Position numbers and translations under genes: made by a program
Notes under the pieces: generated by a model
What the model was told of the DNA's origin: nothing
Database searches by the model: none
The model's input: the letters and a program-made list of their open reading frames with translations, nothing else
From: Candidatus Bathyarchaeota archaeon
Lineage (GTDB): Archaea > Thermoproteota > Bathyarchaeia > Bathyarchaeales > Bathycorpusculaceae
NCBI GenBank assembly: GCA_963767735.1
Contig: CAVYES010000006.1
Location: 224,001-288,000 of the forward strand
DNA length: 64,000 bases
Reading direction: 5' to 3'
In this document: positions 14,453 through 41,697 of the stretch, one piece after another
How positions within the stretch are numbered: position 1 is the stretch's first letter
How the letters are laid out: each line of letters opens with the position of its first letter

Positions 14453-14459
14453 ACCCAGT

Positions 14460-23183: not shown

Positions 23184-23721
23184 CTTTCCTTTCCTCCATT
23201 AACCTACCTGCTTCTTTTTCAACTTGCAACTGAGCTTTAAAGTGAGCGTTATACAGGTTAACAACCTTGTATAGCCAGTAAACTGACCCGATGCCCAGCG
23301 TAACAATTGTAATTAAAACATAAGTTTTTATCGGTATCGTCTGGGTCATAAACATCCGTTCTGGAAAAGCAGCCGCAAGAAACTTTTCCTGATTTCTCTC
23401 ATGCACCACTAAATCCCTAGACAATAAGTAAAGGATGACAAAAACCGGAATAACCAAAATGATGCTGACCGCCCAAGCCTTCGCATTCCTGTCTATAAAA
23501 TGTTCGCTCGTTGCCGGGGGCTCCTTTCCCTGGCTCCTCAGATAGGTGGCAACCTGATTTTCAAGTTTTGCTTCACGCTGAAAATGCTTATTTCTTCCCT
23601 CGATTAGTCGGTAGAACATGGGGAAAAACGCCAATCCAAAGGTAACGATCGCCGCCAGGAACCACATGGAAAACCAAATTTTCCTGTCGCTTCCAACTTT
23701 ACTCTGCATAGCGGTTTCCAT
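23167..23721 (-). CDS. Membrane protein (DUF4234-like)
   Basis: Duplicated IVTFGL / IVTLGIGSVYWLYK...N.H motifs with 3 TM helices. Confidence 0.6.
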   Translation of the reverse strand: METAMQSKVGSDRKIWFSMWFLAAIVTFGLAFFPMFYRLIEGRNKHFQREAKLENQVATYLRSQGKEPPATSEHFIDRNAKAWAVSIILVIPVFVILYLLSRDLVVHERNQEKFLAAAFPERMFMTQTIPIKTYVLITIVTLGIGSVYWLYKVVNLYNAHFKAQLQVEKEAGRLMEERKAVGHM

Positions 23722-23788
23722 GTAAATCCCGAACTGGCCCTTAAAGTGCTAACAAGGTTGGAGCACCCAAACTTTATAAGCTCTTCCA

Positions 23789-24505: not shown

Positions 24506-24509
24506 GCAA

Positions 24510-25514: not shown

Positions 25515-26700
25515 CGTCTGCTTTGTTTCGCCTGAGTATTGGCCTCTTTCTGGTGGAACAGGCGCCTACGTTTACTATCTGTCAAACGAGCTTATGAAAA
25601 ACGGCTACAAAATCATCGTAGTCACAGGCTCTGACCAAACGTTAGACGTAGAAGTCAACGAGCAATTAAAGGTGTTTTTCCTAAAAATCCCCAAAGCACC
25701 CGTTATAAAATCGTTTATGCTTGCAGCCTCCAGCTACCGCAAACTAAACAGCGTCCGCGGAACCGTTAACGTGGATATCACGCATGCCAACTTGCCGTTA
25801 ACGCCGAACTTTGCAGTGCCGCCGAACTTTGGAAAAACACTCGTTTGCACCGTTCACTCAACATGGAAAGGCGAAGCACAAGCTATACGAGGCGAACCCT
25901 ACAGCAGGCTTAACGCCAACGAAAAGTTTATGGTAAGTTTCAACTGGTTTTTGCGGATTTTCGAAGAAAAAATGCTTGAGAACGTAAGAAAAATTATCGC
26001 TGTCAGCCACTTCACAAAACGCGAACTGCTTGACTACTACAAAGTGCCCGAAGAAAAAATCCGAGTCATCCACAACGGCGTCAACACAAGCAAGTTCCAG
26101 CCGGCAAAAGATAAGCGCAAAATCAAGGAAGAGCTCGGCTTTAACCCAAACGATTTAGCTATAGTGTCAGTGGGTAGGCTCTACGCACGCAAAGGTTTAT
26201 TCACGCTTATTGAAAGCATGCCCGCCATCATTAAGCGGTTCAAAAACGCCAAATTTATAATTTCAGGCAAAGGACAAAGCGACGAAATGCATAAACTCAT
26301 CGTCTATGCCGAAAAAATCGGCGTAAAAGACAACATAATCTTCACTGGTTACTATCCCGACAAGAAACTGCCCAAACTCTACCAAGCTGCAGACGTATTC
26401 GCTTTCTCCACATTCTATGAGCACCACCCCTTCGCTGTCCTCGAAGCTCTTTCAACAGGGTTGCCCGTGGTAACAACAAATGTTGGCGGAATTCCAGAAA
26501 CGATTGAAAATGGCAAAAACGGGTTCTTGGTTGAGCCGTTCAATCCAAAACAATTCGGCGACAAGATACTGTATTTGCTTGATCACCCATCTGAAGCGTC
26601 GGAAATGGGGGTTCTTGCCAGAAAAAGCATTTTAGAACGTTTTGATTGGCGCATCGTCGTTAAAGACGCCATGAAAGTTTATGATGAAGCGCTTGGCTAA
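25507..26700 (+). CDS. GT4 glycosyltransferase
   Basis: IIAVS, IHNGV, VGRLYARKG, EHHPFAVLEALSTGLPVV. Confidence 0.9.
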   Translation: MRSVCFVSPEYWPLSGGTGAYVYYLSNELMKNGYKIIVVTGSDQTLDVEVNEQLKVFFLKIPKAPVIKSFMLAASSYRKLNSVRGTVNVDITHANLPLTPNFAVPPNFGKTLVCTVHSTWKGEAQAIRGEPYSRLNANEKFMVSFNWFLRIFEEKMLENVRKIIAVSHFTKRELLDYYKVPEEKIRVIHNGVNTSKFQPAKDKRKIKEELGFNPNDLAIVSVGRLYARKGLFTLIESMPAIIKRFKNAKFIISGKGQSDEMHKLIVYAEKIGVKDNIIFTGYYPDKKLPKLYQAADVFAFSTFYEHHPFAVLEALSTGLPVVTTNVGGIPETIENGKNGFLVEPFNPKQFGDKILYLLDHPSEASEMGVLARKSILERFDWRIVVKDAMKVYDEALG

Positions 26701-27659
26701 GCGATTTGTACTGGTTCTCGCCTGTAAGCCACCGTTACTTTCTGGAAAAGCTTTACTACATCAAGAGAGCAAAACAGCAGCTTCGTTAAGTACTCATGCT
26801 GATAAATTGTCATCTGGGCTTTTACCGGCAAATCAATCCGCGGTGGCTCAAATTTGTGCTCAACCATGGCAATCGGCAAACCTTCAACACTAAGGTCCCC
26901 TTCTCGTAGACCCGTTTTGTCGGCGATGTACCCCAGATAGGTTTCCTTCCAGTTCAACATCATAACTTTGGCGGCAGTTACGTCAACGGCTAACGCGTCG
27001 CTGCCTGACAGCATTAACCCCATTTTGACTGGTTTGCCTTTAGTTGGACCATTGCCTTCGATGCCTATCCTTGCATCCATAATCGTTAATTGTGGCCTAA
27101 GCAGGTTGTATAATCGATAGAGCACTTCCGGTAAGTAAGGATGTAAATAGATGCGTTTGTTGCTGGGAACGCAGCCGAAGAGGTTTTTGATGGCGCCGCT
27201 GAAAGCCATAAACTCATGCGTTTTCATCAAAGGCAAATCCACCACAGCATCCGCATCCAACAAGGTTTTAGGTAGAAACAGCCGCTTCAATGGAGTGCTG
27301 CCTTGAAATTTTACTTCGACAACTTTATCTTCGGAGAGGTTGATGACGCTGCCACCTGCCGCTTTTACTGCGGCTTCGACGCCTGTTTTATCGAACGCTG
27401 TCCAGCAGGGATAGTTAAAGCCATTTGATTCGCCCACAATGACTTCGCTGTTTCCGTCGCGGAGCAAGCCGACGAGTTGCTGCATCAATTCAGGGCTCGT
27501 AACAACGCCCGGCAGGTATTCTGGGTGACTTAAGTTTGGCTTAATGAAAATTTTGCGTTTGCCATGTAACCCTGAATTATCGACGGCTTCCTTTACAATC
27601 TCGCTTACGTCATCTTTTGCACGGAAAATTTTAACTGTTTTCTGCTCTACGCGTGGCAT
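26697..27659 (-). CDS. DUF362 domain protein
   Basis: IKPNL, VGES, LPLMKTH, GAIKNLFG, EGNGP, DALAVD. Confidence 0.85.
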   Translation of the reverse strand: MPRVEQKTVKIFRAKDDVSEIVKEAVDNSGLHGKRKIFIKPNLSHPEYLPGVVTSPELMQQLVGLLRDGNSEVIVGESNGFNYPCWTAFDKTGVEAAVKAAGGSVINLSEDKVVEVKFQGSTPLKRLFLPKTLLDADAVVDLPLMKTHEFMAFSGAIKNLFGCVPSNKRIYLHPYLPEVLYRLYNLLRPQLTIMDARIGIEGNGPTKGKPVKMGLMLSGSDALAVDVTAAKVMMLNWKETYLGYIADKTGLREGDLSVEGLPIAMVEHKFEPPRIDLPVKAQMTIYQHEYLTKLLFCSLDVVKLFQKVTVAYRREPVQIA

Positions 27660-27661
27660 AA

Positions 27662-29087
27662 CTATGCACCCTTCACTTGTTTTCCCATTATGCAGCCTGG
27701 GTCAGAATTGAGCATGTCACCGTTATGGTATGCAGCTGACCGTGCTCTGCACCCGCCGCAAATGTACTTGTAGTCGCATTTTCCGCAGGCTCCTTTTAGG
27801 TTGCCTCTGTTGCGTAAAGATTTAAAGAGTGGCGAGTTCAGCCAGATATCCTGAAACTTTTCCGTTTTCAGGTTTCCAACGTTTACCGGGAGAAAGACGC
27901 ATGGGTGAACATCGCCTTGAGGCGAGAGAGAACAGTATAATCTTCCTGCGCCGCAGCCGCCAATGAAATCCGCCAGCGGCACGGCTTTCTTGGTGACTTT
28001 GACGGTTTGCATGTGCGCCATAGACATAGTTACTTCGCCTGTGCCTTGCTGGTCCTTGACATTGCAAGCCAACGCGGGCTAGCTGGGGCGCCGTGGTGAG
28101 AATGGTTGTTTTGCAGCCCTTCGACATCCTTGCAAGCAGGTACCGCATGAGTTTTTCGCGTTCTTCAGGAGAGAGGTCTTGGTCGTAGTGTGCTTTGCCT
28201 CTGCCTGTTGGAATGAAGTTGAAGTAAGTGAACCGCTCCGCACCTACGTCTTCGGCTAAATCGATAATTGCCGGCATTTCTTCAAGGTTATTTTTAGTAG
28301 CCGTGGTAGCTATGCATACGCATAAATCAGCTTCAACACAGTTCTTCAACCCCGCAACTGCCCTATCAAAAGCGCCCGGTACACCTCGAAACTCGTCATG
28401 TGTTTTGGCGGATGCGCCGTCTATGCTGATGTCTAAATAGTTAACTTTGGCTTGCTTTAGCTTCTGCACAGTTTCCTTGGTAAGCAGGGTGCCGTTTGTA
28501 GCGACCGACACGTAGAGCCCGCGGTCGGCGGCATGCCTTGCAACTTCAAAGAAGTCTTTTCGGCTCAGTGGTTCACCGCCTGAAAAAGCCAGCGCTGTCA
28601 CTCCGGCATCGGCAAGCTGATCAACCACCGCCAAGGCTTCTTTGGTTGTTAATTCTTCCTCGTTGACTGCGCCACTGTTTGAGTAGCAGTGCTTGCAGCT
28701 CAAGTTACATTTATGCGTGAAATCCCAAACAATCAAGAAAGGCGCATAAAGCGAGATTGGCTTTTTAATTCCCATGTAAGCGAAGGACTTTGTCAAGTTG
28801 GTTATTGCTCTTCGCGCATATGGGTCAGCTAAGAGCTTTTCAACTTTTTCCCGCTTAATGTTTAGGCTTCTTCTTAGAAATTCAACCCAAAAACCAATAA
28901 CCTGCGAGTACAAAGCGCTGCATTTCTCACAGTTCTGCTCGGTTTTTCCAGAATAAGAGTCCAATGCTGCTTCAAGAACCGTTCTGCCGCAAGCAGGGCA
29001 TTTTTTTAGAGATAGCCGCAGCATTTTTTTTGTCATGGGCAGAGTTATCACTGCGTTCCAGAAGCTATCATGACTCAATAGACTCAT
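27662..29087 (-). CDS. Radical SAM/SPASM protein with N-terminal Cys-rich extension (possibly GMGT synthase Gms-like); frameshift near 28045
   Basis: N-terminal CPAC...CEKC; WDFTHKCNLSCKHCY; SGGEP; SPASM GCGAGR...PC...CGKCDYKYICGGCRAR...DPGC in the second frame. Confidence 0.8.
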
Positions 29088-29235
29088 CCGCGGTCGGACT
29101 CCTGAATCAGCAACAGTTGTAGAGTAGGTTACGTGGGGATGTTAAAGATTTCTCCGCAACGGCTTAAATCGAGGATTTTTAAAACTTATTCTGCCGAGAG
29201 TTTTATAAGTCAAAAAATCATATAGCCCGAAGGAT

Positions 29236-30304
29236 ATGCTTCCCACCTTCAAACAGGACTTACCGTTAATAACCATAGGGATAGTGGTTTTCAATAGGGA
29301 ATGGATATTGAAAAAATGCTTGCTTCAGTGCAAAGCCAAACTTATCCTCATGATAAACTCTTTGTGTTGGTGGTGGATGGGAAAAGCAAAGACAACACCG
29401 TAAAGATTGCCGAGCAAGTTTTAGCTAAATCCGATTTTAACGGTTGTCAAGTCATCGTTAAAGAATCAAATATTCCTGAGGCTAGAAACATCTGCATTCA
29501 AAACATGAGGGGCGATTTTCTTCTTTTTTGGGACAGCGACGTGATAATGGAATCAACAGCCGTCGCTCACTCACTTGAAACACTCAAAAAAGAAAACGCC
29601 GACATGGTCCAATCAACAATCACCCAGGTAACCGTTGACTCAGCGGATGAAATAGCTGAAAAATGGAGAGCGTGGGAAACAAAATATCCTCGACAAGAAA
29701 AAACCAGAATCGTTAACTTAACTGGAACCGGTAATCTTCTAATCTCAAAAAAAGTATTAACGCAGTTATCCTTTGACCCAGATTTAACTTTTTTTGAAGA
29801 CCAAGATTTCACGTCACGTGCAACAAAGCAAGGCTTCAAAGTATTGGAGACAAAAAACGTCATTGGTTTTGACGTTAATTCAAATAAGCCCTACAGTAGC
29901 ATCTACGCATTTGATATGCCCCTAAAAGAAGCGTTGCGGGGGATTCGCAAAAAGGAAAATTTCAAGCGCAAAACGTCACAGCCAACTCCTCTTCAATCAG
30001 CAAAGCAACGATAGAATTCTTTTTGGCAAACAAACGCTACATATTTTACGTTGGCTACATCCCAATCATAATCTTAACGTTTGTTGGAGTTTTGATTCAG
30101 AATTTGTGGTTGAGTCTGATTTTTCCAGTTTACTTTTTGCTCTACGTAGGTGTTCAGCTGGCGAGAAGAGGATTTGCCAAAGGGCTCAACGTTGCAGTTA
30201 GAAGCTTTATTGTCGGAATCCCCACAACTTGCAGCCTCCTCTACTACTGCATAAAGTTAAGCGTCAAAAATCAAAAAAAGCTTAGCAATAAACCCGCAGC
30301 TTAA
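29236..30304 (+). CDS. GT2 glycosyltransferase with C-terminal TM segments (two frameshifts, ~29305 and ~29955)
   Basis: MLPTFKQDLPLITIGIVVFNRE from ATG 29236, then VVDGKSKD, ARN, WDSD, FED, then membrane ORF 30023..30304. Confidence 0.7.
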
Positions 30305-30308
30305 CCAG

Positions 30309-30932
30309 TCACCTTTTCAGGTTTCTGTTCATTATTTTTTCTGCAATTTCCAAATCCTTAAGCGTGTTAATGTTTAGAAGAACTTCAACCTCTTCTGTGA
30401 TAAGGGCGCTTGTTTCAATTTTGCCGACGCCTTGAATTTTGGCGCCGTTAACAATGTTGACTCCCGAAACGGCATACCATTCGCCCATGTACTCGTCAGT
30501 AGAGTCAACGGAGAGTCCTAGAGCTTCACGGGCTGATACTGGGACGAAAACGGCGTAGAAGTCTTTACCGCAGGCTTCAAACTGTCTGATGATTCTGTCA
30601 AGAAATTTACCCGTGACAGCAGGAGAATCAGCTGGAATCGTCAAGACAGGACCCATCAAATCAGCCATAGCTGCCGCCTGCTTCAAATCATTATGATAGC
30701 CTTTGGCGTCTGTACGCAGCACATTCCACCCATTGCTTAGGCAGTGTTTCTCCGTTTCAGGCGTGTTTGCACTGGTCACAACGTAAAACTCTAAAACTTT
30801 CTCCGCGCTCGCAACCGCCTCAGCAACCCAATCAATCAGCGGTTTACCTAAAAAAAGCAAAAGTGGCTTCTCCACTGGCAAACCCATGCGTTTGCCTTTT
30901 CCGCCAGCCATAATCAAAGCGGGAACTTTCAT
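30309..30932 (-). CDS. cobY: CobY-like nucleotidyltransferase (adenosylcobinamide-phosphate guanylyltransferase), copy 1
   Basis: ALIMAGGKGKRM..EKPL, GYHNDL, PADSP, GVNIV, NINT; overlaps cobS. Confidence 0.75.
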   Translation of the reverse strand: MKVPALIMAGGKGKRMGLPVEKPLLLFLGKPLIDWVAEAVASAEKVLEFYVVTSANTPETEKHCLSNGWNVLRTDAKGYHNDLKQAAAMADLMGPVLTIPADSPAVTGKFLDRIIRQFEACGKDFYAVFVPVSAREALGLSVDSTDEYMGEWYAVSGVNIVNGAKIQGVGKIETSALITEEVEVLLNINTLKDLEIAEKIMNRNLKR

Positions 30933-31759
30933 ATCAGCATCAACACTCCTGCAATCAAAATAAGCGTAACTGCCCTAGCCACCTCGTTGGTTGCCCCAAT
31001 CATGTCGCCTGAAACTCCGCCGAAAACGTTTTCCGCAACTTTCTCCATAACGAGCGCCACTGGAATGCTGACTAAAACCAATCCGACGGCAACTAAACCT
31101 AAAAACGGTTTACCCGTCAAACCAAAAAACGGGTAGACAATCAAAATAGAAAGCGCGTAAGCGATAATATTGAGTTTCTTTTTGGCTTTTTGAAGGAAAA
31201 TAGAACCTAACCCTTTATGTGTAGGTTTCCCCACCCAAACAATCGTAACCATAGCTAATTTCGCTGAGAGTTCAGCCGCAACTATACCTCCGAAAGCATA
31301 AAGCGGGTTAATTAAAAATAAGCCTGCGAAAGCGGCAAACTCGACAATAATCGCGAGCAGTGCTCCCCAGTAAGTTACCGTCCAAGCGTGGGCAACCATT
31401 TTGCGGTCATGCAAATTTCTAAGCCCAAACGCGTTGCCTAAATCGATTAAGCCGTCAAAATGTTGGAGTCCAGTTACGACAAGCAGAAAAGCCACGGTCA
31501 TCGCGGAAACCGCTAGCTTTGTCAATAAGTCAGTTGGCAAGGCAATGATCGGGTTAACTAGGTTGAGTAGGAAATGAACGATGATGCTTGCGCCGATGAA
31601 GTAAGCGCCGGCCAGTATGCCTATGATAGCGCCAATAAATGGGAAAAGGTACATGTGCTCGGCTGTGGTGAAAATGAAATCTTCCTTTCCGCCCACGGGG
31701 ATTATTGTTAGGAAAGACAGTAAATCCCTAAAAGTTTTTATAGCTTTCAGCGGCGACAT
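30929..31759 (-). CDS. cobS: CobS-family cobalamin 5'-phosphate synthase, divergent copy 1
   Basis: FLTIIP, FPFIG, TGLQHFDGLID, FGGVSGDMIGATNE; multiple TM helices. Confidence 0.75.
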   Translation of the reverse strand: MSPLKAIKTFRDLLSFLTIIPVGGKEDFIFTTAEHMYLFPFIGAIIGILAGAYFIGASIIVHFLLNLVNPIIALPTDLLTKLAVSAMTVAFLLVVTGLQHFDGLIDLGNAFGLRNLHDRKMVAHAWTVTYWGALLAIIVEFAAFAGLFLINPLYAFGGIVAAELSAKLAMVTIVWVGKPTHKGLGSIFLQKAKKKLNIIAYALSILIVYPFFGLTGKPFLGLVAVGLVLVSIPVALVMEKVAENVFGGVSGDMIGATNEVARAVTLILIAGVLMLI

Positions 31760-31805
31760 ATACCCTACAACTATCTAAAGATAATATAGACTTTGTCGTG
31801 ATTAT

Positions 31806-32738
31806 ATGGGGGAACTTAAAGAGAAAAAAATACTAGTCACTGGCGGCGCGGGGTTTATCGGCTTTCATTTGTGTAGTAGGCTATCGGGACTAACGTCCGA
31901 CTTAACAATTTATGATAACTTATCAAGCGGCAAAAAAGAAAACGTAAAAGACGTCCCAAACGCCAAATTCATTAAAGGCGACATTTTGGACCTCAAAAAA
32001 CTTCTCTCCTTGGAGAAGACCGATTTAATCTATCATTTAGCCGCCCAAGTTGTAGTTCCCTACTCAATGGAGAATCCCCTTATAGATTTTGAAACAAACG
32101 CTAAAGGAACCGTGCAGGTTCTTGAGAAAGCACGCAAAGACGATGCAAAACTGGTTTTCGCTTCCAGCGCAGCCGTCTATGGCAACCCAACCGTCTTTCC
32201 AACTCCAGAAGAATATGGTTTTCACCCCTTTTCCTGCTACGGGTTATCCAAAGTAGTCGGCGAAGAATACTGCGAAATGTACCGAAGCCAATACGGCTTA
32301 GACATCACGATAATGAGGTTTGCTAACGTTTACGGACCAAGATGCCACGGAGTCATCCATGACTTTATAGATAAACTCGCTAAAAACCCAAGCAAACTAG
32401 AAATCATAGGTACCGGGCTTCAATCACGCGATTTTGTACAGGTATCCGATGTTGTGGATGCATTAGTAACTGTCGGCTCAAACGATTCTGCTAACGGTAA
32501 AACTTACAACATTGGCTTTGGAACGACAACCCAGATAATAGATCTTGCCAAAATGATTCTCCAAATTCTCAATTTGCAAGCCAAGACATTCGTTACAACA
32601 ACCAATGTTTCTTGGCAAGGCGATGTGACAAAAATTTGGTTTGACAATTCTAAAGCAAAGAAAGAATTGAATTGGAATCCAAAAATAACTCTTGAAGACA
32701 GCATAAAAGCGATTATTGCTGAGAGGAAACTTTCGTAA
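31806..32738 (+). CDS. NAD-dependent NDP-sugar epimerase/dehydratase (GalE-like)
   Basis: TGGAGFIG, SSAAVYG, YGLSK, RFANVYGP. Confidence 0.9.
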   Translation: MGELKEKKILVTGGAGFIGFHLCSRLSGLTSDLTIYDNLSSGKKENVKDVPNAKFIKGDILDLKKLLSLEKTDLIYHLAAQVVVPYSMENPLIDFETNAKGTVQVLEKARKDDAKLVFASSAAVYGNPTVFPTPEEYGFHPFSCYGLSKVVGEEYCEMYRSQYGLDITIMRFANVYGPRCHGVIHDFIDKLAKNPSKLEIIGTGLQSRDFVQVSDVVDALVTVGSNDSANGKTYNIGFGTTTQIIDLAKMILQILNLQAKTFVTTTNVSWQGDVTKIWFDNSKAKKELNWNPKITLEDSIKAIIAERKLS

Positions 32739-33620
32739 TGGCCACTTCAAAGCCAGCTAGAGGATTGATAGCGCTTCTGCGCCTTCCCTACTGGCTGATG
32801 ACAGGTGGTTTATCTCTCCTAACAGCCTTCGCTATCACCAGAAAACCATTTAGCCTCAGCATCCAAACGGATTTGCTGATTTTCTTCTCCATGGCATTCA
32901 TAACTTCCGCAGGCTTCGCAATCAACGATTACTTCGACAGGGAAAGCGATGCGGTAATCAAGCCAAAACGCCCCATACCTTCAGGTGCACTGTCGTTAAA
33001 GCAGGTGGTAGCAGTGTCAAGCGTACTTTTCGTTGCAGGTTTGATCATGGCGTCTTATATTAACTGGTTAAGTTTCGCAATTATCGCCGCTGATTCTGCC
33101 CTTCTTCTGGTTTACTCAATAGTCGTGAAGCGCAAATCAGGCTTTGCAGCGAATGTTTTAGTGGGCATTTTAACAGGTACCGCCTTCATGTTTGGAGAAG
33201 CCACAATCACCATCCCTCCGACGATTAGCTTGATTTCTTTAAGCCTCTACCCCATAGCTTTTGGAACAATAGGCGGCAACGTCCTGCGCGATGTCCTAAG
33301 CCTTGATGGCGACTCAAAAACTGGGTACCCAACGCTCCCGCAGAAAATTGGCATCGGCAAATCGGTGAAAATGGCTGCTGTGTTTTTCACATTAACGGGG
33401 TTGCTTGCGCCTCTTCCTTACTTCATAGGCAAGTTTACAGTTTACTATTTGCCTCCTATTCTTTTCTGGAGCGTTCTTCTAATTTACTGTTCAATCCGCC
33501 TAGCTAACCTCAGCTTCAACGTTGACCAATGTGCGAAAATATGAGCGCATAGTCACGATGTCGATGATTCTTCTTCCGTTAGCATTAATAATCGAGGCAA
33601 CACTTGGAGGGTTACTATGA
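32738..33620 (+). CDS. UbiA-family prenyltransferase, DGGGP synthase-like (frameshift near 33508)
   Basis: INDYFDRESD..KPKRPIPSG, RDVLSLDGD...PTLP; the alternative frame continues NVRKYERIVTMSMILLPLALII to TGA 33620, overlapping the next ATG. Confidence 0.8.
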
Positions 33621-35084
33621 CCAAAACCAAAAGCATCTGCCCTGAATGCCAGAAAAAAATCGATGCACAACTAACTCAAGCTAACGGAAAAATCCAAATC
33701 ACCAAGCAGTGCCCCGAACATGGCGCTTTTGAAGCTACTCACTGGCAAAGCACTGACATCTACAATCACATGCAAACTTATGACCAATTTCAGTACCTCG
33801 GCGATTTGAACGCTCCCAAAGACCCAAAAGGTTGCCCCTACGTCTGCGAAACATGCAACAACCATGCTTCAGGCACGGTCATAGGCGTAATAGACGTTAC
33901 AAAACGCTGCAACTTCAAATGTGCAGTTTGCTTCTCAACTTTTCCGCAGCAAGAAGTCGATTATGAGCCAACTAAAGAAGCGCTTATAGATATGCTTGAG
34001 TTCGTAAGCAAAGCTAACCCTAAGCCTCCAGCCATTCTTTTTTCAGGCGGTGAGCCGCTGGAGCGCGAGGATATGCCTGAAATAATCGAGTGCTGCACAC
34101 AAGCTAAAATTTATGACTATATTAGCGACCAACGGGACACATTTGGTTGACACCCCGGGGCTGGCAAAGAAGCTGAAAGATAGCGGCTTAAACATCGTTT
34201 ATTTATCGTTTGACAGTTTCCACGAAGAATTCAACAAGAAAATTAGAGGGCAAGAACTCGTAGATATGAAACTTAAGGCTATTGAGGTTTGCCGAAAATA
34301 CGACATGGAAATCATCTTGGTCAACACTTTGATGAAAAGCTTGAACGATAAAGAAGTCGGCGACATGATACGGTTCGCGGCTAAGAACACTGACATAGTG
34401 CGAGGCTTAATTTTCCAACCTATCGCCTTCACAGGCAGAGCCACCGAGAACCCGTTCCGCGAAAATTTCCGTGAATGGTCATTTGCAGAGGACGTTGAAA
34501 AACAAACAGACGGCGAAGTAAAAACCACCGACCTCTTCCCCATGTCGGTTATGACTTCTCCGATAAAGATAATGCGTAAATTCATGCAAAAACCTTGGCC
34601 CCTGTTCTCTTGCAGCCCACAATGCGGAATCGTAAACTGGGTTTACGTTTCAAAAAACGGCAAAATGTTCCCAATCAACCGATTCGTCAACTTTGACCGA
34701 TTCTTTAACTACATCAGAAAAACCGCTGAAAATGCAGAGTCAAAGGGCAAATTTTCTCTGCTCTCATCACTATTCATGGCATCAATGCTTTCAATGAACA
34801 TGCTCGAAGTCACCAAGGAAGTCGGCATGCCAACCCTGATGAAATCAATCATGAGGATGCATCTTTCACCATCATACCAGTCACTGGGAAAAATCCGCAG
34901 ACGCATCTTCTTGCTTGGCTGCATGGCGTTCATGGACTCATACAACTTCGACGTCAACCGAGTCCGTCGATGCGTGGTTCACTACATTACGCCCGACAAG
35001 AAGATCATACCTTTCTGCGCATACAACAATATCCATAGGGTAGCAATCGAGAAAGAGTACGCTGAAAGGCATAAGACGGCTTAA
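33617..35084 (+). CDS. tes: Tetraether lipid synthase Tes / GDGT-MAS (MJ0619 family) radical SAM homolog; +1 frameshift near 34088
   Basis: TKSICPEC...KQCPEHG, GCPYVCETCNNH, DVTKRCNFKCAVCF, FSGGEP, LATNG, FQPIAFTGR, CMAFMDSYNFDVNRVRRCVVHYITPD..IIPFCAYN. Confidence 0.8.
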
Positions 35085-35614
35085 CTTAGCACTTGAATGT
35101 TTAAGACGCAATAGTTGTTTACATTGTTATTTGTAAACTGGTAAGTTGCTGAATCTGAATTATATTGCCAAAGCTCAAAAACTACCGAGTAGCTTCCAAC
35201 TTGATTTTCCGTAACAGGGACTGATTTTTGCCAGCTTTGGCCGTTCCCCAAGGTAAAATTATACGCGTCGATGGGCTGAGTATTAACTGGCAGAGTTGTA
35301 ATGTCATTGGTGATTTTCACTAAAACTTCGTATTGCACAGTGCCTCCCATATTGTTCACAACGGTAACAGGCTCATTGAATGTGCTGTTCTGGTTAGCTA
35401 CCAAAACTGACGGGTAATCAGCGGCTTTGTTTTGTGAATCAAGCAGATAAATCGTGCTGTACCCCGCTGGCGCCGGCCTAAAAAACACAAAGTAACTTGC
35501 AGCTACTGCAGAAATAATTATTAAGGCAACAAAAATGGCGACGGCATAGCCTTTTTCATCGTTTAAACCAATTTTTCTGCCAAGCTTCTTCGTTTTTTCT
35601 AACCATGTCGGCAT
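35081..35614 (-). CDS. DUF1616-like membrane-anchored protein
   Basis: N-terminal TM, YSTIYLLD..KAADYP, V.N.MG..YEV; likely start ATG 35614. Confidence 0.65.
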   Translation of the reverse strand: MPTWLEKTKKLGRKIGLNDEKGYAVAIFVALIIISAVAASYFVFFRPAPAGYSTIYLLDSQNKAADYPSVLVANQNSTFNEPVTVVNNMGGTVQYEVLVKITNDITTLPVNTQPIDAYNFTLGNGQSWQKSVPVTENQVGSYSVVFELWQYNSDSATYQFTNNNVNNYCVLNIQVLS

Positions 35615-36293
35615 CCAGAAGGCCTCTAAATATAGTGCTAAATATTTCAATTCCTGACTTAAATTTTTTGAGCTTGGTTTTCCCGTATTTTCGGGCTTTA
35701 TAGGTGGTGGGAACTTCAACCATGTTGTATCCTTCTTTTGCGAATTTTACAAGCATTTCAGTAGCGTAAGCCATGTCTCCCTCGTTTAACTTTACTTTGT
35801 CGATGGCTTCATGAGAAATTGCTCGGAAACCTGATTGTGTGTCGCTGAGGAATTGGCTATAGAAGAAGTCGAAGCAGAATGTAATCACTTTGTTTCCTAT
35901 GAAATTCATGAATCCCATGGCTTTGTTTGGGTCATACATGCGAGTGGCTAAAACCATGTCTGCGTCTTTCTGAATCATCATATCCAGCAAGCGGTTGATG
36001 TGTTTTACCTCGTAGGTGCCATCGCCGTCAACCATCACGATAATGTTGCCTTTCGCGTTTTTCATGCCTGTTTTAAGGGCGACGCCGTACCCGCGTCTTG
36101 GTTCAATAATAAGCTTGCAAAAACTTGTGTCTTTAACGATTTCTATTGTTCCATCAGTAGAGTTGCCATCAACAACAATTATCTCCTTTGGGTACTCCAA
36201 GTCTTTATAGATGGTTGTGACAGCTTCTAAGATGTTTCCTGCTTCATTGAGTGTTGGAATTACTACCGAGACCAGTTCAACTTTCGATGTCAT
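35556..36293 (-). CDS. GT2 glycosyltransferase (DPM synthase-like)
   Basis: SVVIPTLNE, VVDGNSTDGT, RGYG, DGDGTY, DTQSGFR. Confidence 0.9.
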   Translation of the reverse strand: MTSKVELVSVVIPTLNEAGNILEAVTTIYKDLEYPKEIIVVDGNSTDGTIEIVKDTSFCKLIIEPRRGYGVALKTGMKNAKGNIIVMVDGDGTYEVKHINRLLDMMIQKDADMVLATRMYDPNKAMGFMNFIGNKVITFCFDFFYSQFLSDTQSGFRAISHEAIDKVKLNEGDMAYATEMLVKFAKEGYNMVEVPTTYKARKYGKTKLKKFKSGIEIFSTIFRGLLDADMVRKNEEAWQKNWFKR

Positions 36294-36334
36294 GGTAACT
36301 CTCATCTTAAGGCTATATTGTTTCACCATCTTAG

Positions 36335-37493
36335 TTAAATAAGCTCTTCGTATATCCCGATTAATGTTTCAACGTTTTTATCCCAGCTGAACTTTTCTTC
36401 CATCCTTGCTCGAAGCTCTACTTTACGCGAAGAAAAATCAATATTTGCAAATTCCAAAACTGCGTTTGCAAGTTGCTCAGGCTGGTTAGATGGCACAAGT
36501 TTTCCGTAATCTTCCATAAGAATTTCACTTATTCCTCCAACGTTTGTGGCTATTACTGGCAATCCGCAAGCCATGGCTTCAAGCGCAACCAAAGGCAAGC
36601 CTTCTCCCGATTTTGATGGCAGCACAAAGAAGTCTGCGGCGTTATAGTAAAACGGTAAATCTTCATCTTTAACAAAGCCTGTAAGCCTAAAATTGTTTTC
36701 TATCCCTAACTGTCGTGTCATCATTTGAACGTTGTTTAGATCTGGTCCTTTTCCAACAACTAGGAAAGTAATCTTTGGGTTCTTTTTGACGGCTATGTTT
36801 GCGCTCTCTATTAACGTGTCAACGCCGTTTTTGTAAACAAGCCTTCTGACGGTTAAAGCCACGATTGCGTCTTGGGCTATTCCAAGTTTTCTTCTCATTT
36901 CTTCTCGTTTCCCCGTCAAAGGCCTGAAACGGACCAGGTCAACTCCGTTGTGTGACACTTTAATCTTGTTTGGTTTTGCGCCTAAACTTAAAACATAATC
37001 TTTTGTTGCGTTGCTCACAGTGATTATTTTGTCGGCTTCTTTTAGCGTCTCCTTTCCAACTGCCAAATCATTTAACCGTTCAACGTTGTCAAAAATGCTG
37101 TCGTATTCAATGAAGGTGTTGTGCTGCGTCAACACAAATGGCTTATTGTACCTCTTCGCAAGTTTGGCTGCAATAAGCGACGTTAGGTACGGGTGACCAT
37201 GCGCATGGACAATTTTGCTTGATTTTACAGCTTTAAGAAAAGTTTCAAAACTTGTCACTGTCGGAATCGAGTAAGGGATTCCCAGGCGGAAACCCGTGTT
37301 TAACGATTCATAACATTCGACGTTTACGCCGTCAACAACATAGTTTTTTGGCTGTTCCAATCCGGTTCGTGACCACCATGGGCTCAAAATTTCTTTGAAG
37401 TAGCCGCTTGCTTTGCTCATAAACAACCCTTTCTATTCCGCCAGTATGGGGCAAAAAGGTGTGAGTAACAATGCAAAGCCTTGTTTGAACCAT
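36335..37493 (-). CDS. GT4 glycosyltransferase (frameshift near 37350)
   Basis: N-terminal FLPHTGGIERVV in ORF 37332..37520; HNGVD, KNGVD, EGLPLVALEAMACGLPV in the main ORF. Confidence 0.85.
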
Positions 37494-37711: not shown

Positions 37712-38193
37712 TTATTGTTTTGCCTGTGCATTTTTAGTGGCGCGTGTATAAACGTTTGATGATACGCCTGCAACCAAGGCGCCTATGGCGTCGTTTGTGA
37801 TTGAGCCGAGTTTCTTTAGAATTCCGGGTTTAGCTTGGTCAAACCGCACGTACTCGAAAACTGCTCTGGTTCCGCCGATGTAGCTGGCAATCGCTATTCC
37901 TAAAACTTCGTCAGCAACTGGTCCTGGTCTACCCTTGAACCTTTCCTGCGTTAAGCCGGGAATCAAGCCCTTCTCTGCATCTTCCTGCGCTCGGAAAGCA
38001 GCACTTCAAGGATGGAAACATTGACATCTGAGAGGACATCGAGGAATTCTTCTCTGAACATTTCAACGGCTTTTTCCTCTGTTTCCACGCCTGGGTGAGG
38101 CACAAACATTTCAAGTGCACAGTGAATGAGGCTTTTTAGGGATATGTCTTTTTTTTCAAGAAACTCAAGTAAGGCTGGCATTTCATTGCTCAT
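37712..38193 (-). CDS. cobZ: Alpha-ribazole-phosphate phosphatase CobZ (PgpA-like), frameshift near 38000
   Basis: MFVPHPGVET...LSDVNV then VADEVLGIAIASYIGGTRAVFEYVRFDQAKPGIL...DAIGALVAG. Confidence 0.75.
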
Positions 38194-38528
38194 AATTTCA
38201 ACCTCAATTTTTAAAGGTAAAGTGTGCTTTAAGCGTTGCGTGACTCTGATTACCGTAATGCTTATATGAAAAGGTTGGATAAACCAACCAAACATGGCGG
38301 TGATAATTTGCTGAACTTCCAGAAAAAACCTGATATTCCGCTCAAAATATTATGGCAAGGCAAATTATCTGAATGTTTGAAGAGTAAAACAACATTTTTG
38401 TGGTTACCTGTTTCTGCAACTGAAGAAACCGGTTTTTTCGGAAAATCAAATATTTCAAATTCACCTAAAACCTAAACAAAACAAAATAATGGTTGAGGGT
38501 GAAGATACTTAGGGAGGAAAAATTAGAA

Positions 38529-39215
38529 ATGAAAGTTGTTGCTTCATGGAGTGGCGGAAAAGACAGTTGCTATGCTTATTATTTGGCAACCCAGCAAGGC
38601 TACGAAGTAATTAGCCTTTTAACTATGATGATGAGTGAAACCAAATCAAACTTCCACATGATACCCTCCGGCATACTTGACGCTCAAGCAGAAGCCATCG
38701 GAATCCCACTTCTAAAGCAGGTGACTACGGCTGAAACCTACGAGAACGATTTCAAACGTGCACTGCGAATACTCAAAGCAAAGGGCGCCGAAGGCTTAGT
38801 TACAGGGGACATCTACGAGGTAGCGGGGCACGAAGAAGGTTGGCTTGGGCGAGTGCTCAAAGAAGTCGGGTTGAAGCCAATAAAGCCTCTTTGGATGGGT
38901 GACACAAAACAAATTTACCTTGACTACTTAAAAACGGGTTTCAAAGCAACCGTGGTGCGCACTAACCTCAGCAAGTTGGGTGTGGAGTGGCTTGGGCGAG
39001 TTCTGGACAAAAAATTCTACGATGACATCCTGAAGCTTGGCAATGTTGATTCTTGCGGGGAAGGCGGCGAATACCATACCGTAGTGACTGATGGACCGAC
39101 TTTTAAGAAAAAGATTGAAATTCTTGAAACGCAAAAGCATAAGCTTGACGGCGGCTTCGGATATTTAGAAATTAAAAGATTCGAAGTTAAGCCCAAAGGC
39201 AAGGTAAAATCGTAG
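38529..39215 (+). CDS. DUF71/Dph6-like ATP pyrophosphatase (canonical motifs), first gene of cob operon
   Basis: SWSGGKDS, QAEAIGIP, TGDI, PLW, DSCGEGGEYHT.V.DGP.F. Confidence 0.9.
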   Translation: MKVVASWSGGKDSCYAYYLATQQGYEVISLLTMMMSETKSNFHMIPSGILDAQAEAIGIPLLKQVTTAETYENDFKRALRILKAKGAEGLVTGDIYEVAGHEEGWLGRVLKEVGLKPIKPLWMGDTKQIYLDYLKTGFKATVVRTNLSKLGVEWLGRVLDKKFYDDILKLGNVDSCGEGGEYHTVVTDGPTFKKKIEILETQKHKLDGGFGYLEIKRFEVKPKGKVKS

Positions 39216-39216
39216 A

Positions 39217-40317
39217 ATGGACAAGACTCTTGACGTACTGATTGCTCATAACCCGCTAAAAGCGGAAGCTTTCCTCGATGAAATCGACGGAAAAAACCCT
39301 TTATTTATTTGTACAATAGCCACCACTGAAACAGGCAAAATCTCTGGCATATCCGCGGCTGGAGCAAACCCAGAATTCACCGATTACACACCCCCAGCAG
39401 ACGCTGAACTGCTCTTGCTGGGCAAATGCAAATCCATAGCCGGCGTGCCCATAACTCCAGACGGCATTCCGACACCAGGCTTGATAACTATGTCGGCTCT
39501 ACACTTAGCCGATATTCCAGTGCTCATTGCCAGCGGCGGACTAAAAGTGAAACCGCAGATTCCCTTCTTAGATTTCGGCGGCAACCCCGGAAGAGACATC
39601 CGAACAGGCAACGCCGTTGATAACGTTGCGGAAGTAATCGAGCGCGCGAAAATTGCGGGGCAGAATTTGGCTAAAGCCGTGGATTATCTTGTGATTGGCG
39701 AGAGTATCCCTGGGGGAACAACAACCGCTCTTGGTGTATTGTCGGCTTTAGGCGTGAAAGCGGAGGGAAAAGTAAGCAGCACTCTGCCTGAAAACCCCCA
39801 CAGCTTGAAAGCAGAAACCGTCAAGGCAGGATTAAAAGCGGCTGGCGAGAGTTTTGGCAGCTTAGCAAACAATCCCGTTAAGGCTATTTCCTGCGTCGGC
39901 GACCCCATGATGGCTGCTTTCTCGGGACTGGTGATTGGTGCGGCATCGCAGGTGCCCGTGCTGATGGCTGGCGGAACACAGATGAGCGCTATCTTAGCCC
40001 TTGTGAACGCTTTGGAACCCGATGTTCTCTGCAACGTGGCGGTGGGCACAACAAGATGGGTTGCAAAAGACAAGTCATCCGACCTCAAAGGCATAGTTAC
40101 CCAGTTCTGCGATGTCCCGATTTTAGCGGCGGACCTAAACTTTGGCTCCTCACGTTTCCCAGGCTTGCGGACATATGAAACTGGTCTTGTGAAGGAAGGC
40201 GTCGGCGCAGGAGGCGCTTCTATCGCGGCGATGGCGAAGCTTGGCGGCGCAGTCACAGCTGACCTACTGCTTAAAGAGATAGAGCGTAATTATGCTCTGC
40301 TGATGGGTCTGAAGTGA
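39217..40317 (+). CDS. cobT: Archaeal NaMN:DMB phosphoribosyltransferase CobT
   Basis: TETGKISGISAAG, TPPADAE, PTPGLIT, GESIPGGTTTA, GDPM, AGGTQM, KEGVGAGG. Confidence 0.9.
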   Translation: MDKTLDVLIAHNPLKAEAFLDEIDGKNPLFICTIATTETGKISGISAAGANPEFTDYTPPADAELLLLGKCKSIAGVPITPDGIPTPGLITMSALHLADIPVLIASGGLKVKPQIPFLDFGGNPGRDIRTGNAVDNVAEVIERAKIAGQNLAKAVDYLVIGESIPGGTTTALGVLSALGVKAEGKVSSTLPENPHSLKAETVKAGLKAAGESFGSLANNPVKAISCVGDPMMAAFSGLVIGAASQVPVLMAGGTQMSAILALVNALEPDVLCNVAVGTTRWVAKDKSSDLKGIVTQFCDVPILAADLNFGSSRFPGLRTYETGLVKEGVGAGGASIAAMAKLGGAVTADLLLKEIERNYALLMGLK

Positions 40318-40318
40318 A

Positions 40319-41089
40319 TTGGTTACTAAAGAGTTAAAGAACCTTCTTTCTTTCCTCACAATTTTTCCAGTAACAATGGATAAAGACATGCTGACTGACT
40401 GCGCCAAAAACATGTGGGTTTTCCCATTAATCGGCGCATTCATCGGTTTATTAGCTGGAGTGTTCGGCTGGGTAGCTTACCACTTTTTGCCCGACATAGT
40501 GGTCGGCGGCTTAGTGTTGGCTTTGTTGCTGCTGATTACCGGGCTTCACCACACCGACGGCTTACTTGACTTCGGCGACGGCGTCATGGCTCACGGCACA
40601 GCTGAACACAAAATTGAGGTTATGCATGACCAACTCACAGGCGCAGGCGGCTTAACGTTGGGCATCATGACCATTCTGATCACCGCTTTAGCCATCGGAC
40701 AAATCAGCGGCAATGGTGAACTCAAAATTCCCTTAATCATCGGCGGCATCATCGCCATAGAAGCGTCAGCAAAGCTTGCCATGGTTATTATGGCGTGGGC
40801 TGGAAAATCAGTCCATCAAGGCATGAACTCACCCTTCTTAGAAGCTATGCATGGGAGCAAAGGCAACTTGCGCCTCATCGCTGCGGTGGTGATTTCTTTT
40901 GCGGTTGCTTTGCCTCTGCTGGGTTGGGCAGGCGCTTTCACCGTGATTGCAGCCATTATCACCAGCCTTGTCATGGTTGCCATTGCGCACAAGCACTTCA
41001 ACGGAGTCACAGGCGACGTGTTCGGAGCAACTAACGAGATAACCAGAATGGTCTGCGTGATCGTCCTGTTGGCGGTGGTTATACGGTAA
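40319..41089 (+). CDS. cobS: Cobalamin 5'-phosphate synthase CobS, copy 2 (canonical)
   Basis: FLTIFP, TGLHHTDGLLDFGDG, MHD..TG, GVTGDVFGATNE. Confidence 0.9.
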   Translation: MVTKELKNLLSFLTIFPVTMDKDMLTDCAKNMWVFPLIGAFIGLLAGVFGWVAYHFLPDIVVGGLVLALLLLITGLHHTDGLLDFGDGVMAHGTAEHKIEVMHDQLTGAGGLTLGIMTILITALAIGQISGNGELKIPLIIGGIIAIEASAKLAMVIMAWAGKSVHQGMNSPFLEAMHGSKGNLRLIAAVVISFAVALPLLGWAGAFTVIAAIITSLVMVAIAHKHFNGVTGDVFGATNEITRMVCVIVLLAVVIR

Positions 41090-41100
41090 CCGCACTCGTT

Positions 41101-41697
41101 ATGGCTGGCGGAAAAGGAACCCGCATGAAAGTCGCACAGGAGAAGCCGCTGATTAAAGTCTGTGGCAAACCCGTTATCTTATACGTGCTGGAGGCGTTGA
41201 AAAACGCTAAGAAAATTGATTCCGTCGTTGTCGCTGTCAGCTGTTGCACCCCCAAAACTGCCCAGTTTCTGAGTCAGTTTCCAGTCCAAGTGGTTGAAAC
41301 TCCCGGGGTAGATTATGTTTCCGATATGGGCTACGCTAGTAAAGCACTCAAACTCGGCGTTTTCTTAGCTATCGCAGCCGACTTGCCGCTGGTCACAGGA
41401 GAGGTGCTGGATAAAATTGTTGAACGTTACGAGCGATGCGGCAAACCAGCATTAACTGTTGCCGTTCCGCTTGAAACTAAAACCAAGCTTGGCATGTGTG
41501 TTGAGTACTCGTTCAAAATCGGCGATAAAGACGTAGTTCCCGTCGGCATCAATGTTATAGATGGGCATAAACGGTACGGCGACGAATGGCTCGACCAAGA
41601 CATCTGCCTGTTAAACCTAGATGAACTGGCAGTAAATATCAACACTGTACAGGAAATGCAAATAGCCGAACGCTTAGTATCAAAGCATGCGAAATAA
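41101..41697 (+). CDS. cobY: CobY guanylyltransferase, copy 2
   Basis: (TALV)MAGGKGTRM..EKPL, YVSD, ADLPL, VGINVI, NINT. Confidence 0.85.
   Translation: MAGGKGTRMKVAQEKPLIKVCGKPVILYVLEALKNAKKIDSVVVAVSCCTPKTAQFLSQFPVQVVETPGVDYVSDMGYASKALKLGVFLAIAADLPLVTGEVLDKIVERYERCGKPALTVAVPLETKTKLGMCVEYSFKIGDKDVVPVGINVIDGHKRYGDEWLDQDICLLNLDELAVNINTVQEMQIAERLVSKHAK

Follow-up and report, generated by a model that had tools for sequence, protein, structure and literature searches.

A second prenyltransferase and tetraether-synthase homologue, coupled in Bathyarchaeia, as a candidate branch of ether-lipid synthesis

Here, we describe two coupled genes of a Candidatus Bathyarchaeota archaeon, ubiA2 and tes2, which are paralogues of housekeeping ether-lipid genes, are physically linked, evolve under selection and carry characteristic residue changes. 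This second lipid-enzyme pair, with what appear to be rebuilt substrate pockets, probably makes a membrane lipid not yet described. Our best explanation, to which we give about an even chance, is that UbiA2 and Tes2 form a branch route leading from a head-modified acceptor to a distinct membrane-spanning lipid.

Results

The genes lie in the window, the whole stretch of 64,000 nucleotides analysed, in a run of three on the forward strand: an accessory epimerase (31806..32738; NAD-dependent UDP-hexose 4-epimerase, GalE-type extended SDR, Pfam PF01370 at 192 bits), ubiA2 (32738..33620), encoding a DGGGP-synthase-derived prenyltransferase with a rewritten motif 3, and tes2 (33617..35084), encoding the second tetraether-synthase homologue. 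The original prediction of a TAATG stop/start overlap between the epimerase and ubiA2 (32736..32740, forward strand) and, after frameshift correction, of an ATGA overlap between ubiA2 and tes2 (33617..33620, forward strand) proved right. The ubiA2 frame contains a single break, one extra base at ~33504-33506, beyond which it terminates at the TGA of the ATGA, and tes2 likewise contains a single break, one extra base at ~34088-34091. Base 33506 is missing from two contigs from public short-read runs (X1 and X2) and base 34091 from the X2 contig; because these contigs are near-identical to the window (6/813 and 2/258 letters differ), the extra bases are assembly errors. The UbiA2-Tes2 pair is under purifying selection, with a dN/dS of 0.03-0.12 for the epimerase, ubiA2 and tes2 in pairs with estimable dS, which, together with the near-identical contigs lacking the extra bases and the intact genes of relatives, rules out a pseudogene reading. 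Elsewhere in this assembly, the same kind of frame break occurs in other genes, including ordinary tes.

Of 84 distinct UbiA2 loci, 79 could be scored for the ubiA2-tes2 junction and 56 for the epimerase-ubiA2 junction. The former showed a 4-base overlap in 69/79 and any overlap in 75/79, and the latter an overlap in 37/56 and a gap of 1-23 bases in 19/56. Since the overlaps recur among distinct loci, the predicted coupling of the three genes is conserved and not due to chance. A scan for sigma-70 promoters and terminators, using a model that leaves out archaeal promoters, gave counts at chance level.

The pair could have been the only copies in its genome, but ordinary tes and ordinary DGGGP synthase genes are present elsewhere in it; the latter is near-universal in the order, and most carriers hold both the housekeeping and the second sets. 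The UbiA2 and Tes2 clades were confined to one Bathyarchaeia order, and within it to family f1 and genus g16. In a panel of 80 hand-picked genomes, chosen by Tes2 status (38 carriers, 41 others and 1 undecidable), UbiA2 was present in 38/38 carriers and 0/41 others, its gene lying immediately upstream of tes2 in carriers, and this co-occurrence partly reflects physical linkage and kinship. The first Tes scoring of the panel was limited to three candidates per genome and overlooked at least one Tes2 (in G169), leaving its blanks weak; five negative genomes rechecked with a Tes2 profile contained none. In the phylogenies proposed with the original prediction, UbiA2 and Tes2 each formed their own clade (UbiA2 with an SH-aLRT of 99.6 and a stem of 1.23, Tes2 with a long stem), and in one tree Tes2 grouped with three long branches, one of them a Hodarchaeales protein. 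The best outside matches had suggested transfer from Methanobacteria, which the trees did not support. Outside these Bathyarchaeia, the search found no Tes2-like protein: one representative scored 734 bits and the next 395.

The epimerase is predicted to be an ordinary, dispensable GalE-type enzyme. It contains the extended SDR fold motifs and the catalytic Ser, Tyr and Lys, with Ser121 and Tyr145 invariant in 62/62 aligned copies, and its best PDB matches are the archaeal UDP-glucose/galactose 4-epimerases 3ICP and 3EHE, with which it shares the NAD-binding motif, Ser, YxxxK and an HGVIxDF segment. Unlike NCBIfam galE members, it scores below the galE cut-off (169 vs 262), with no sign of other chemistry. 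An orthologue is present in 33/38 carriers and 0/41 others; a backbone-changing role is unlikely for a GalE-like enzyme missing in 5/38 carriers.

The best PDB match and closest structural relative of UbiA2 is the M. jannaschii DGGGP synthase 6M31, and it scores 145 bits to DGGGP synthase versus 61 to chlorophyll synthase. Against PRK12882 and PRK12884 (cut-offs 296 and 269), UbiA2 scores 154-172 bits, but the housekeeping copy also falls short, at 180 and 235. Motif 1 (N62, D66 and D70; Mj numbering throughout) and motif 2 (Y125 and K130), as defined in the part of PMC9385802 consulted, are invariant in 88/88 UbiA2, and F148, D180 and D187 are also kept. Unlike 6M31, however, UbiA2 has a rewritten motif 3, GNxLRDxxSxxGD in 88/88, sits on a long separate branch and is additional to a housekeeping copy. 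The substitutions R175G, E176N, K179R and D183S, together with RxxN to RxPYW, occur in 88/88 UbiA2, whereas R175, E176, K179 and D183 are invariant in 30/30 and 34/34 ordinary DGGGP synthases. Motif-3 mutations of MjDGGGPS impaired the binding of GGGP and not of GGPP, according to the same part of PMC9385802, and UbiA2 would retain its donor site beside the rewritten motif 3. The departure from KDxxDxxGD originally seen in UbiA is by itself unremarkable, as 30/30 housekeeping copies of the order and 32/34 further Thermoproteota copies read KGxxDxxGD.

Tes2 matches 7TOL best by both sequence and fold. Against NF045702 (cut-off 450), the window Tes2, read in two pieces, scores 162 + 293 bits and 3/3 intact Tes2 pass at 470.8, 493.9 and 484.7 bits, compared with 670 bits for the housekeeping Tes. 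An AlphaFold model from 15 sequences (mean pLDDT 62.8) matched 7TOL at a TM of 0.60, but is too poor for pocket geometry. With Tes/GDGT-MAS (M. jannaschii MJ0619, PDB 7TOL/7TOM), Tes2 shares the four-domain layout, R210 and Q268. The rubredoxin site C9, C12, C33 and H36 (CxxC..CxxH) and the radical SAM CxxxCxxC, the motifs defining Tes in the sections of PMC9433317 consulted, are kept in 79/79 Tes2, as are C73, C80 and H83 of the [4Fe-4S]N site (C77 in 78/79) and M439, Y459, C338, C455 and C470. H83 fits as the [4Fe-4S]N histidine, since those sections place that histidine, unnumbered, in the N-terminal auxiliary domain. We infer that C338, C455 and C470 are the Cys ligands of [4Fe-4S]C because of their family-wide conservation (108-109/110 representatives) and not from coordinates.

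Unlike Tes/GDGT-MAS, Tes2 is a second copy beside a normal tes, is coupled to its own UbiA and has lost His335 and His440. These two residues and Q141, T193, V233 and N265 are all replaced in 79/79 Tes2, the last four by larger hydrophobic residues; they would face the barrel interior, a placement resting on strand alternation from residues contacting 5'-deoxyadenosine or its waters in the consulted sections of PMC9433317. Among 129 positions invariant in 46 ordinary Tes, Tes2 keeps 83 and loses 25, including His335 and His440. Every Tes and UbiA motif originally quoted is found in the window, and the MJ0619 motifs given for comparison, SSHQHCG, CMHFMD and RCCIHY, agree with 7TOL; the predicted divergence of Tes stands for the loss of His335 and the change of His440 to Ala, both clade-specific, but not for Cys456 to Val, which is common in ordinary Tes (Val in 15/21 other archaeal Tes and 8/25 Bathyarchaeia housekeeping copies). 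RCVVHY as a lost cluster ligand is ruled out, Cys456 being variable in ordinary Tes and Cys455 the conserved one. A term search of the preprint 10.64898/2026.09.04.749484 found no residue-level data, and an ESM Atlas search returned generic names only.

These sequences bear first on an isozyme explanation, which we consider unlikely, though not negligibly so, whereby the products of UbiA2 and Tes2 are the usual DGGGP and GDGT, made under different conditions or regulation, and the residue changes reflect drift that became fixed early in the lineage. Consistent with it, Tes2 passes NF045702 with its ligands kept, AU tests leave descent from the housekeeping copies standing (p 0.07 and 0.19), a few Tes2 carriers have no housekeeping tes match in draft genomes (e.g. 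G017), and two tes homologues occur in 22/322 methanogen genomes, according to the part of PMC8941075 consulted. As described there, M. acetivorans also has a working Tes and a further tes homologue, MA_1114; set against that description, Tes2 differs in having a dedicated prenyltransferase and a conserved set of neighbouring genes. However, drift sits poorly with the 25 lost invariant positions, with four invariant DGGGP-synthase positions that were rewritten and then fixed again in 88/88 UbiA2, and with the retention of both sets in most carriers.

A rather improbable alternative is that Tes2 acts on ordinary archaeol lipids to give a different product, mainly a macrocyclic diether, a sub-terminal link or a sulfur-linked lipid, an argument that derives from the changed [4Fe-4S]C second sphere and barrel lining. 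His335 and His440, both lost in 79/79, flank the ligands Cys338 and Met439, and Ala440 occurs in 0/46 representatives keeping Tyr459 and 30/64 without it. In the consulted parts of the respective papers, MA_1114 yielded only trace macrocyclic archaeol (PMC8941075) and a sulfur-lipid intermediate is known (PMC9433317); the latter, however, does not state roles for His335 or His440 there, and such a product leaves the rewritten UbiA coupled to tes2 unexplained.

The UbiA2-Tes2 pair sits within a block of ~15 genes that includes a Gms-like enzyme, glycosyltransferases and an altered CobS. The block contains genes for a CobD-like protein (22067-23147, split), a small membrane protein (23167-23721; a label without Pfam support at 1e-7), two GT2 enzymes (23789-24505 and 24510-25514, the second in 35/38 carriers and 0/41 others), a GT4 (25477-26700) and a DUF362 protein (26697-27659), followed on the reverse strand by a Gms-like radical SAM/SPASM protein with an AhbD-like core (27662..29087, split in this assembly), a CobY-like nucleotidyltransferase (30309..30932) and CobS2, an extra CobS-like membrane protein (30929..31759; TIGR00317 108.9 vs cut-off 110). 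A 46-base gap (31760..31805) separates cobS2 head-to-head from the epimerase and contains a conserved ATATAGRCTTTRTCG element, visible in most of the 56 gaps compared, making it a possible shared promoter. Genes for a DUF1616 protein, a GT2 and a GT4 (35081..37426, reverse strand) converge on tes2 in the window and sit upstream of the epimerase in g16, and in two families several glycosyltransferases remain with the pair despite rearrangement.

The Gms-like protein is present in 38/38 carriers (split in one) and in 0/41 others at 54% identity or more. Gms is defined as an AhbD homologue with an N-terminal extension of ~100 residues and a SPASM domain (PMC11214058), and compared by description with GMGT synthase Gms (PMC11214058, PMC11186832), the block protein is likewise an AhbD homologue, of ~475 residues, with an N-terminal extension of ~115 (AhbD model from residue 118, SPASM 378-437), in a clade separate from other Gms-like copies in the order. 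It is 48% identical to a protein adjoining a B12-binding radical SAM gene, and in two genomes (G040 and G228) the block itself adjoins B12-binding radical SAM genes that share 57-69% identity with genes of the window. CobS2, found in the 38 carriers (37 full and 1 contig-end fragment) and 0/41 others, has two motif aspartates changed and ~20 hydrophobic residues inserted relative to ordinary CobS, and may be inactive, its motif aspartates being lost. The block CobY is the only CobY found in 9/9 g16 and 5/5 g24/g46/g47 carriers; because g16 has no CobY, and usually no CobD, other than that of the block, part of the block probably serves cobamide completion.

These neighbours raise the improbable possibility of a butanetriol route to BDGT/PDGT-type lipids, in which either UbiA2 prenylates a methylated backbone and Tes2 couples the product, or a neighbouring B12-dependent methylase acts on the backbone. 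B12-binding radical SAM genes lie beside the block in the two genomes noted above, and the carriers include the genus Ca. Bathyarchaeum (L151), which is the former subgroup 8 (PMC10477458), for which BDGTs have been reported (PMC12694404), both papers being drawn on in part. Yet M. luminyensis makes BDGTs, according to the part of PMC13003381 consulted, with no Tes2-like protein found outside these Bathyarchaeia; there is a single GGGP synthase, and lipid data for family f1 were not found in the literature searched. Very unlikely is a product outside the bulk lipid, in which CobD, CobY and CobS2 make a nucleotide-loop-like phosphodiester and UbiA2 prenylates that or a corrinoid-related acceptor to give a lipid-anchored cofactor or an aminoalcohol-phosphate head group cross-linked by Tes2: CobS2 tracks Tes2 in the panel from across the conserved gap, has its insertion and changed motifs, and the UbiA2 DxxSxxGD pattern is shared with chlorophyll synthase 9SAU, but UbiA2 scores far higher to DGGGP synthase than to chlorophyll synthase, the block CobY and CobD, mostly single-copy in g16, probably complete normal cobamides, and CobS2 may be inactive.

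Discussion

In our preferred reading, the branch route from a head-modified acceptor, UbiA2 and Tes2 would be a co-translated pair off the normal ether-lipid pathway, making a second class of membrane-spanning isoprenoid lipid. The single GGGP synthase would give the monoether, the head end of which would be altered before the second ether forms. Most likely the phosphate would be lost and a sugar attached by the block GT2/GT4 enzymes, for which the epimerase would provide UDP-galactose or UDP-GalNAc as required. UbiA2, a prenyltransferase by family, would then move geranylgeranyl from GGPP onto the altered acceptor, and a shared geranylgeranyl reductase would saturate the chains. Judging from its intact ligands, Tes2 would share the radical SAM and [4Fe-4S]C chemistry of Tes and use it to couple the chain ends within a pocket that is reshaped and more hydrophobic. 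Bridging or methylation of the product may follow, carried out by the Gms-like enzyme and by B12-dependent radical SAM enzymes encoded nearby.

Several observations argue against this branch route. Tes2 lies above the Tes family cut-off, the epimerase is dispensable, and a second GGGP synthase or CarS was not found in the genome, where each is single-copy. Tes is reported to be non-specific in head-group binding (PMC9433317, in the sections consulted), so a changed head group alone needs no second Tes. One of the three motif-3 aspartates is likewise missing from the housekeeping DGGGP synthases of Thermoproteota, which shows that the motif tolerates change, and part of the block probably serves cobamide completion. 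Of the specialised second route originally proposed, the second copies in their own clades hold up, the epimerase proved ordinary, and the single GGGP synthase and CarS make a self-contained version with a non-standard backbone less likely; the glycolipid or head-modified version appears to be the best reading.

A wider scheme, which we hold to be doubtful, is a parallel workshop in which UbiA2, Tes2 and the Gms-like enzyme build a second membrane-spanning core and the Cob trio and glycosyltransferases add its heads. CobD-CobY-CobS2 would replace CarS and the usual head-group transferase, installing an aminoalcohol phosphate via NDP-alcohol chemistry, and glycosyltransferases would complete the other end. 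If true, this would yield a so far undescribed bipolar lipid, perhaps akin to the subgroup 8 butanetriol lipids, that would be a lineage-specific biomarker found in two abundant Bathyarchaeia lineages.

Among archaea living in anoxic soils and sediments, Bathyarchaeia rank as one of the most abundant groups, and to our knowledge their lipids are almost unknown. The literature searched identified no enzymes for the butanetriol tetraethers reported from Bathyarchaeia and, in a search without one key paper, no mention of the UbiA2-Tes2 pair. Because Tes2 passes the Tes family cut-off, tes counts used as a proxy for GDGT producers are inflated in these genomes. The pair provides two concrete genes that can be expressed in hosts previously used with Tes, Gms and Ted, and could allow orphan tetraethers from peats, paddies and sediments to be traced to their source. 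If Tes2 takes another substrate or forms another bond, it would reveal residues that set the outcome of a rare sp3-sp3 coupling.

Results

The second DGGGP-synthase-like prenyltransferase (UbiA2) and the second tetraether-synthase homologue (Tes2) of the window are a real, conserved and lineage-restricted paralogue pair. On the forward strand, an epimerase gene (31806–32738) is followed by ubiA2 (32738–33620) and tes2 (33617–35084), and the predicted overlaps, TAATG at 32736–32740 and ATGA at 33617–33620, were borne out, as was the frameshift in ubiA2, whose frame is broken once by one extra base near 33505 relative to intact relatives; the tes2 frame is likewise broken once, by one extra base near 34090. 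Both extra bases are absent from public short-read contigs with 6 differences from the window over 813 letters and 2 over 258, and the same assembly breaks further genes in like manner, the ordinary tes included; we read both breaks as assembly errors. Of the 79 loci at which the ubiA2–tes2 junction could be scored, 75 show an overlap, four bases long in 69, and the order epimerase–ubiA2–tes2 is kept in all 20 loci of a first set. At every Tes2 locus with upstream DNA in a larger set, ubiA2 immediately precedes tes2, and the epimerase is missing upstream at eight Tes2 loci, some sharing a genome. Purifying selection acts on all three genes (dN/dS 0.03–0.12 in those of seven pairs with estimable dS). 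An Altiarchaeales record (L158:5116-7479) also has an ordinary-type DGGGP synthase directly preceding an ordinary-type tes.

The genome (G000, 95% complete) carries another tes on contig C6 (22829–24269; locus L004, frameshifted near its 3′ end), which scores 562+112 bits on NF045702, whereas the window copy scores 160+293. The UbiA family is represented by nine matches at seven loci. The locus at C2:100466 had a match, nearly always one strong copy, in 150 of the order's 161 genomes, and we regard it as the housekeeping DGGGP synthase. The window genes are not the only copies in the genome, in line with the original suggestion of a second, specialised ether-lipid route. That route stands insofar as second tes and UbiA copies exist, but it is not self-contained because GGGP synthase and CarS are single-copy, alongside three geranylgeranyl reductases. 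Two more paralogues resembling DGGGP synthase (C6:402364-403224 and C5:216409-217278) carry the motif GEEIAGGAMDxEGD and sit on a long branch of their own, and second tes homologues outside the Tes2 clade occur in other genomes, as two ordinary-type copies in G376 and as shorter, more distant ones in G175 and G342.

Residues were compared among 79 Tes2, 25 Bathyarchaeia housekeeping, 21 other archaeal (mostly Methanobacteria) and 110 representative sequences in MJ0619 numbering; the MJ0619 motifs quoted earlier agree with PDB 7TOL, whose chain number minus 20 gives the numbering of Lloyd et al. (PMC9433317). All 79 Tes2 retain C9, C12, C33, H36, C73, C80, H83, the radical SAM cysteines, C338, M439, C455, Y459 and C470, and 78 retain C77. 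Lloyd et al. name the rubredoxin, N-cluster and radical SAM residue sets, Met439 and Tyr459 (PMC9433317), and we infer from their conservation that C338, C455 and C470 are the three C-cluster cysteines. RCVVHY, put forward as a mark of divergence, proved ordinary, since Cys456 is Val in 15/21 other archaeal and 8/25 Bathyarchaeia housekeeping copies. None of the 79 Tes2 has His335 or His440, which 45 and 46, respectively, of the 46 ordinary copies possess; in total, Tes2 has lost 25 of the 129 positions that never vary in ordinary Tes. Among these, Q141, T193, V233 and N265 (Tes2 numbering) give way to a larger hydrophobic residue in 79/79; each lies two residues ahead of a SAM-site position, suggesting that the four sites probably make up a single ring on the inside of the barrel. 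Intact Tes2 score 471–494 bits on NF045702 (cut-off 450; housekeeping copy 670) and form a single clade with full support on a long stem. By score and predicted ligands, Tes2 is a member of the Tes family with a changed pocket, as judged from sequence.

Among solved structures UbiA2 is nearest to the DGGGP synthase 6M31, at 145 bits against 61 for chlorophyll synthase, and it retains N62, D66, D70, Y125, K130, F148, D180 and D187 (M. jannaschii numbering). Its motif 3 reads GNxLRDxxSxxGD in 88/88, whereas ordinary DGGGP synthases of the order have REx2KGx2Dx2GD in 30/30; 34 further Thermoproteota enzymes show no variation at R175, E176, K179, D183 and D187, and 32 of them carry Gly at 180. KDxxDxxGD, against which this motif had been called odd, was the wrong yardstick, yet the divergence is more marked than claimed: UbiA2 has new residues, again fixed, at four positions that do not vary in ordinary copies. 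According to a review, motif-3 mutations impair the binding of GGGP without impairing that of GGPP, and F148 is a lining residue of the GGPP tunnel (PMC9385802); the simplest reading is a UbiA2 with its donor site kept and its acceptor site rebuilt. By the motif-3 membership test UbiA2 falls outside the DGGGP synthases, and it probably works like one.

Homologues with assigned names put the organism within Bathyarchaeia. Of 24 genomes from the same genus, 22 carry a Tes2 orthologue, as does one among 16 from other families (84–95% identity); the two of the genus without one are 58% and 65% complete. A survey of 401 genomes from the class gave scores at the Tes2 level only in family f1 and genus g16 of one order, the blanks being weak because three candidates were scored per genome. 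One of 1.84 billion representatives reached 734 bits for Tes2 (next, 395), and UbiA2 had 15 matches at 401–469 bits in 301 genomes of the phylum, all f1 or g16 (next, 153). Records titled Ca. Bathycorpusculum (L115, L120) fall in the Tes2 subclades, as does one titled Ca. Bathyarchaeum (L151).

The real unit is a block of ~15 genes (window 22067–37426), with ubiA2–tes2 its tightest part, as indicated by co-occurrence and by the block genes staying linked in both families despite changes in their order. A panel of 80 hand-picked genomes (completeness ≥90%) comprised 38 Tes2 carriers (36 from the 401-genome survey plus G169 and G357, added later), 41 non-carriers, and G365, placed in neither group as its contig ends at the relevant place. 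UbiA2 and a Gms-like radical SAM/SPASM protein were present in 38/38 carriers, the extra CobS-like protein CobS2 in 37 plus one contig-end fragment, one block GT2 in 35 and the epimerase in 33, each with 0/41 in non-carriers; these counts are not independent tests, because the genomes are kin and the genes physically linked. Since genus g24 has members with and without the set, its genes are gained or lost together.

Carriers with complete data have two CobS genes, and none was seen in 39 of the 41 panel non-carriers. CobS2 lacks two motif aspartates that ordinary CobS keeps, which we take to belong to the family's catalytic motifs. The block CobY is the sole CobY found in 14 carriers (g16, g24, g46, g47); the block therefore mixes cobamide-completion and lipid genes. 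A conserved element, ATATAGRCTTTRTCG, occupies the head-to-head gap (31760–31805) and on the minus strand resembles a BRE and TATA box ~23 bases ahead of the cobS2 start. Several g16 loci have a HemN-like radical SAM gene directly before cobS2 (L151:9669-10955, L136:10265-11587, L178:11545-12831), none being seen in the f1 loci examined, a lead towards subgroup-8-specific lipid chemistry. The epimerase, nearest to archaeal GalE-type enzymes with catalytic residues intact, is dispensable and fits sugar-nucleotide supply to the block's glycosyltransferases. The Gms-like protein has an AhbD core with an N-terminal extension, and its likeness to Gms follows the published description (PMC11214058, PMC11186832). 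In two non-carriers, a Gms-like gene abuts a B12-binding radical SAM gene (L269:2817-5715 in G059; L271:2664-5481 in G380), an arrangement like published gms–gmm pairs.

Window 2137–20700 holds six B12-binding radical SAM genes (starts 2137, 6100, 8776, 15402, 17823 and 19330), CbiB (7604) and a methyltransferase (14571); homologues at 53–69% identity adjoin the block in G040, G228 and G258, and these genes are candidate lipid methylases. Cobamide genes of the window are interspersed with three diphthamide-synthase-like PP-loop genes (PF01902; 17021–17737, 21175–21924 and 38493–39215), and the rest of the genome holds at least two further ones. An ordinary cobamide-completion run (37712–41697) comprises a small conserved gene, a PP-loop gene, CobT-like, CobS (155 on TIGR00317) and CobY; its CobT-like and CobZ-like labels are our assumption from gene context, and Pfam gave no match to these genes at 1e-7.

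Discussion

We favour, with about an even chance of being right, a branch route in which a head-modified monoether, probably dephosphorylated or glycosylated, would be prenylated by UbiA2, then reduced and coupled by Tes2, perhaps with bridging by the Gms-like enzyme. Head-group binding by Tes is reported to be non-specific (PMC9433317), so a head-group change alone would be insufficient for the rebuilt Tes2 pocket, which counts against the branch route; the tails of the Tes2 substrate may differ too. That UbiA2 and Tes2 are plain isozymes is unlikely. Two tes homologues are reported in 22 of 322 methanogens, where one tested second copy yielded trace macrocyclic archaeol only (PMC8941075), and the literature searched, with incomplete coverage, gave no description of a second Tes or ubiA–tes pair in Bathyarchaeia. 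A normal diether coupled by Tes2 into a different product appears less probable again. Former subgroup 8, of which Bathyarchaeum is reported as a member (PMC10477458), is reported to have BDGTs (PMC12694404), and we give a butanetriol route a slightly smaller chance still. A cobamide-loop-like or lipid-anchored product is the most doubtful. The product of the UbiA2–Tes2 pair is directly testable.
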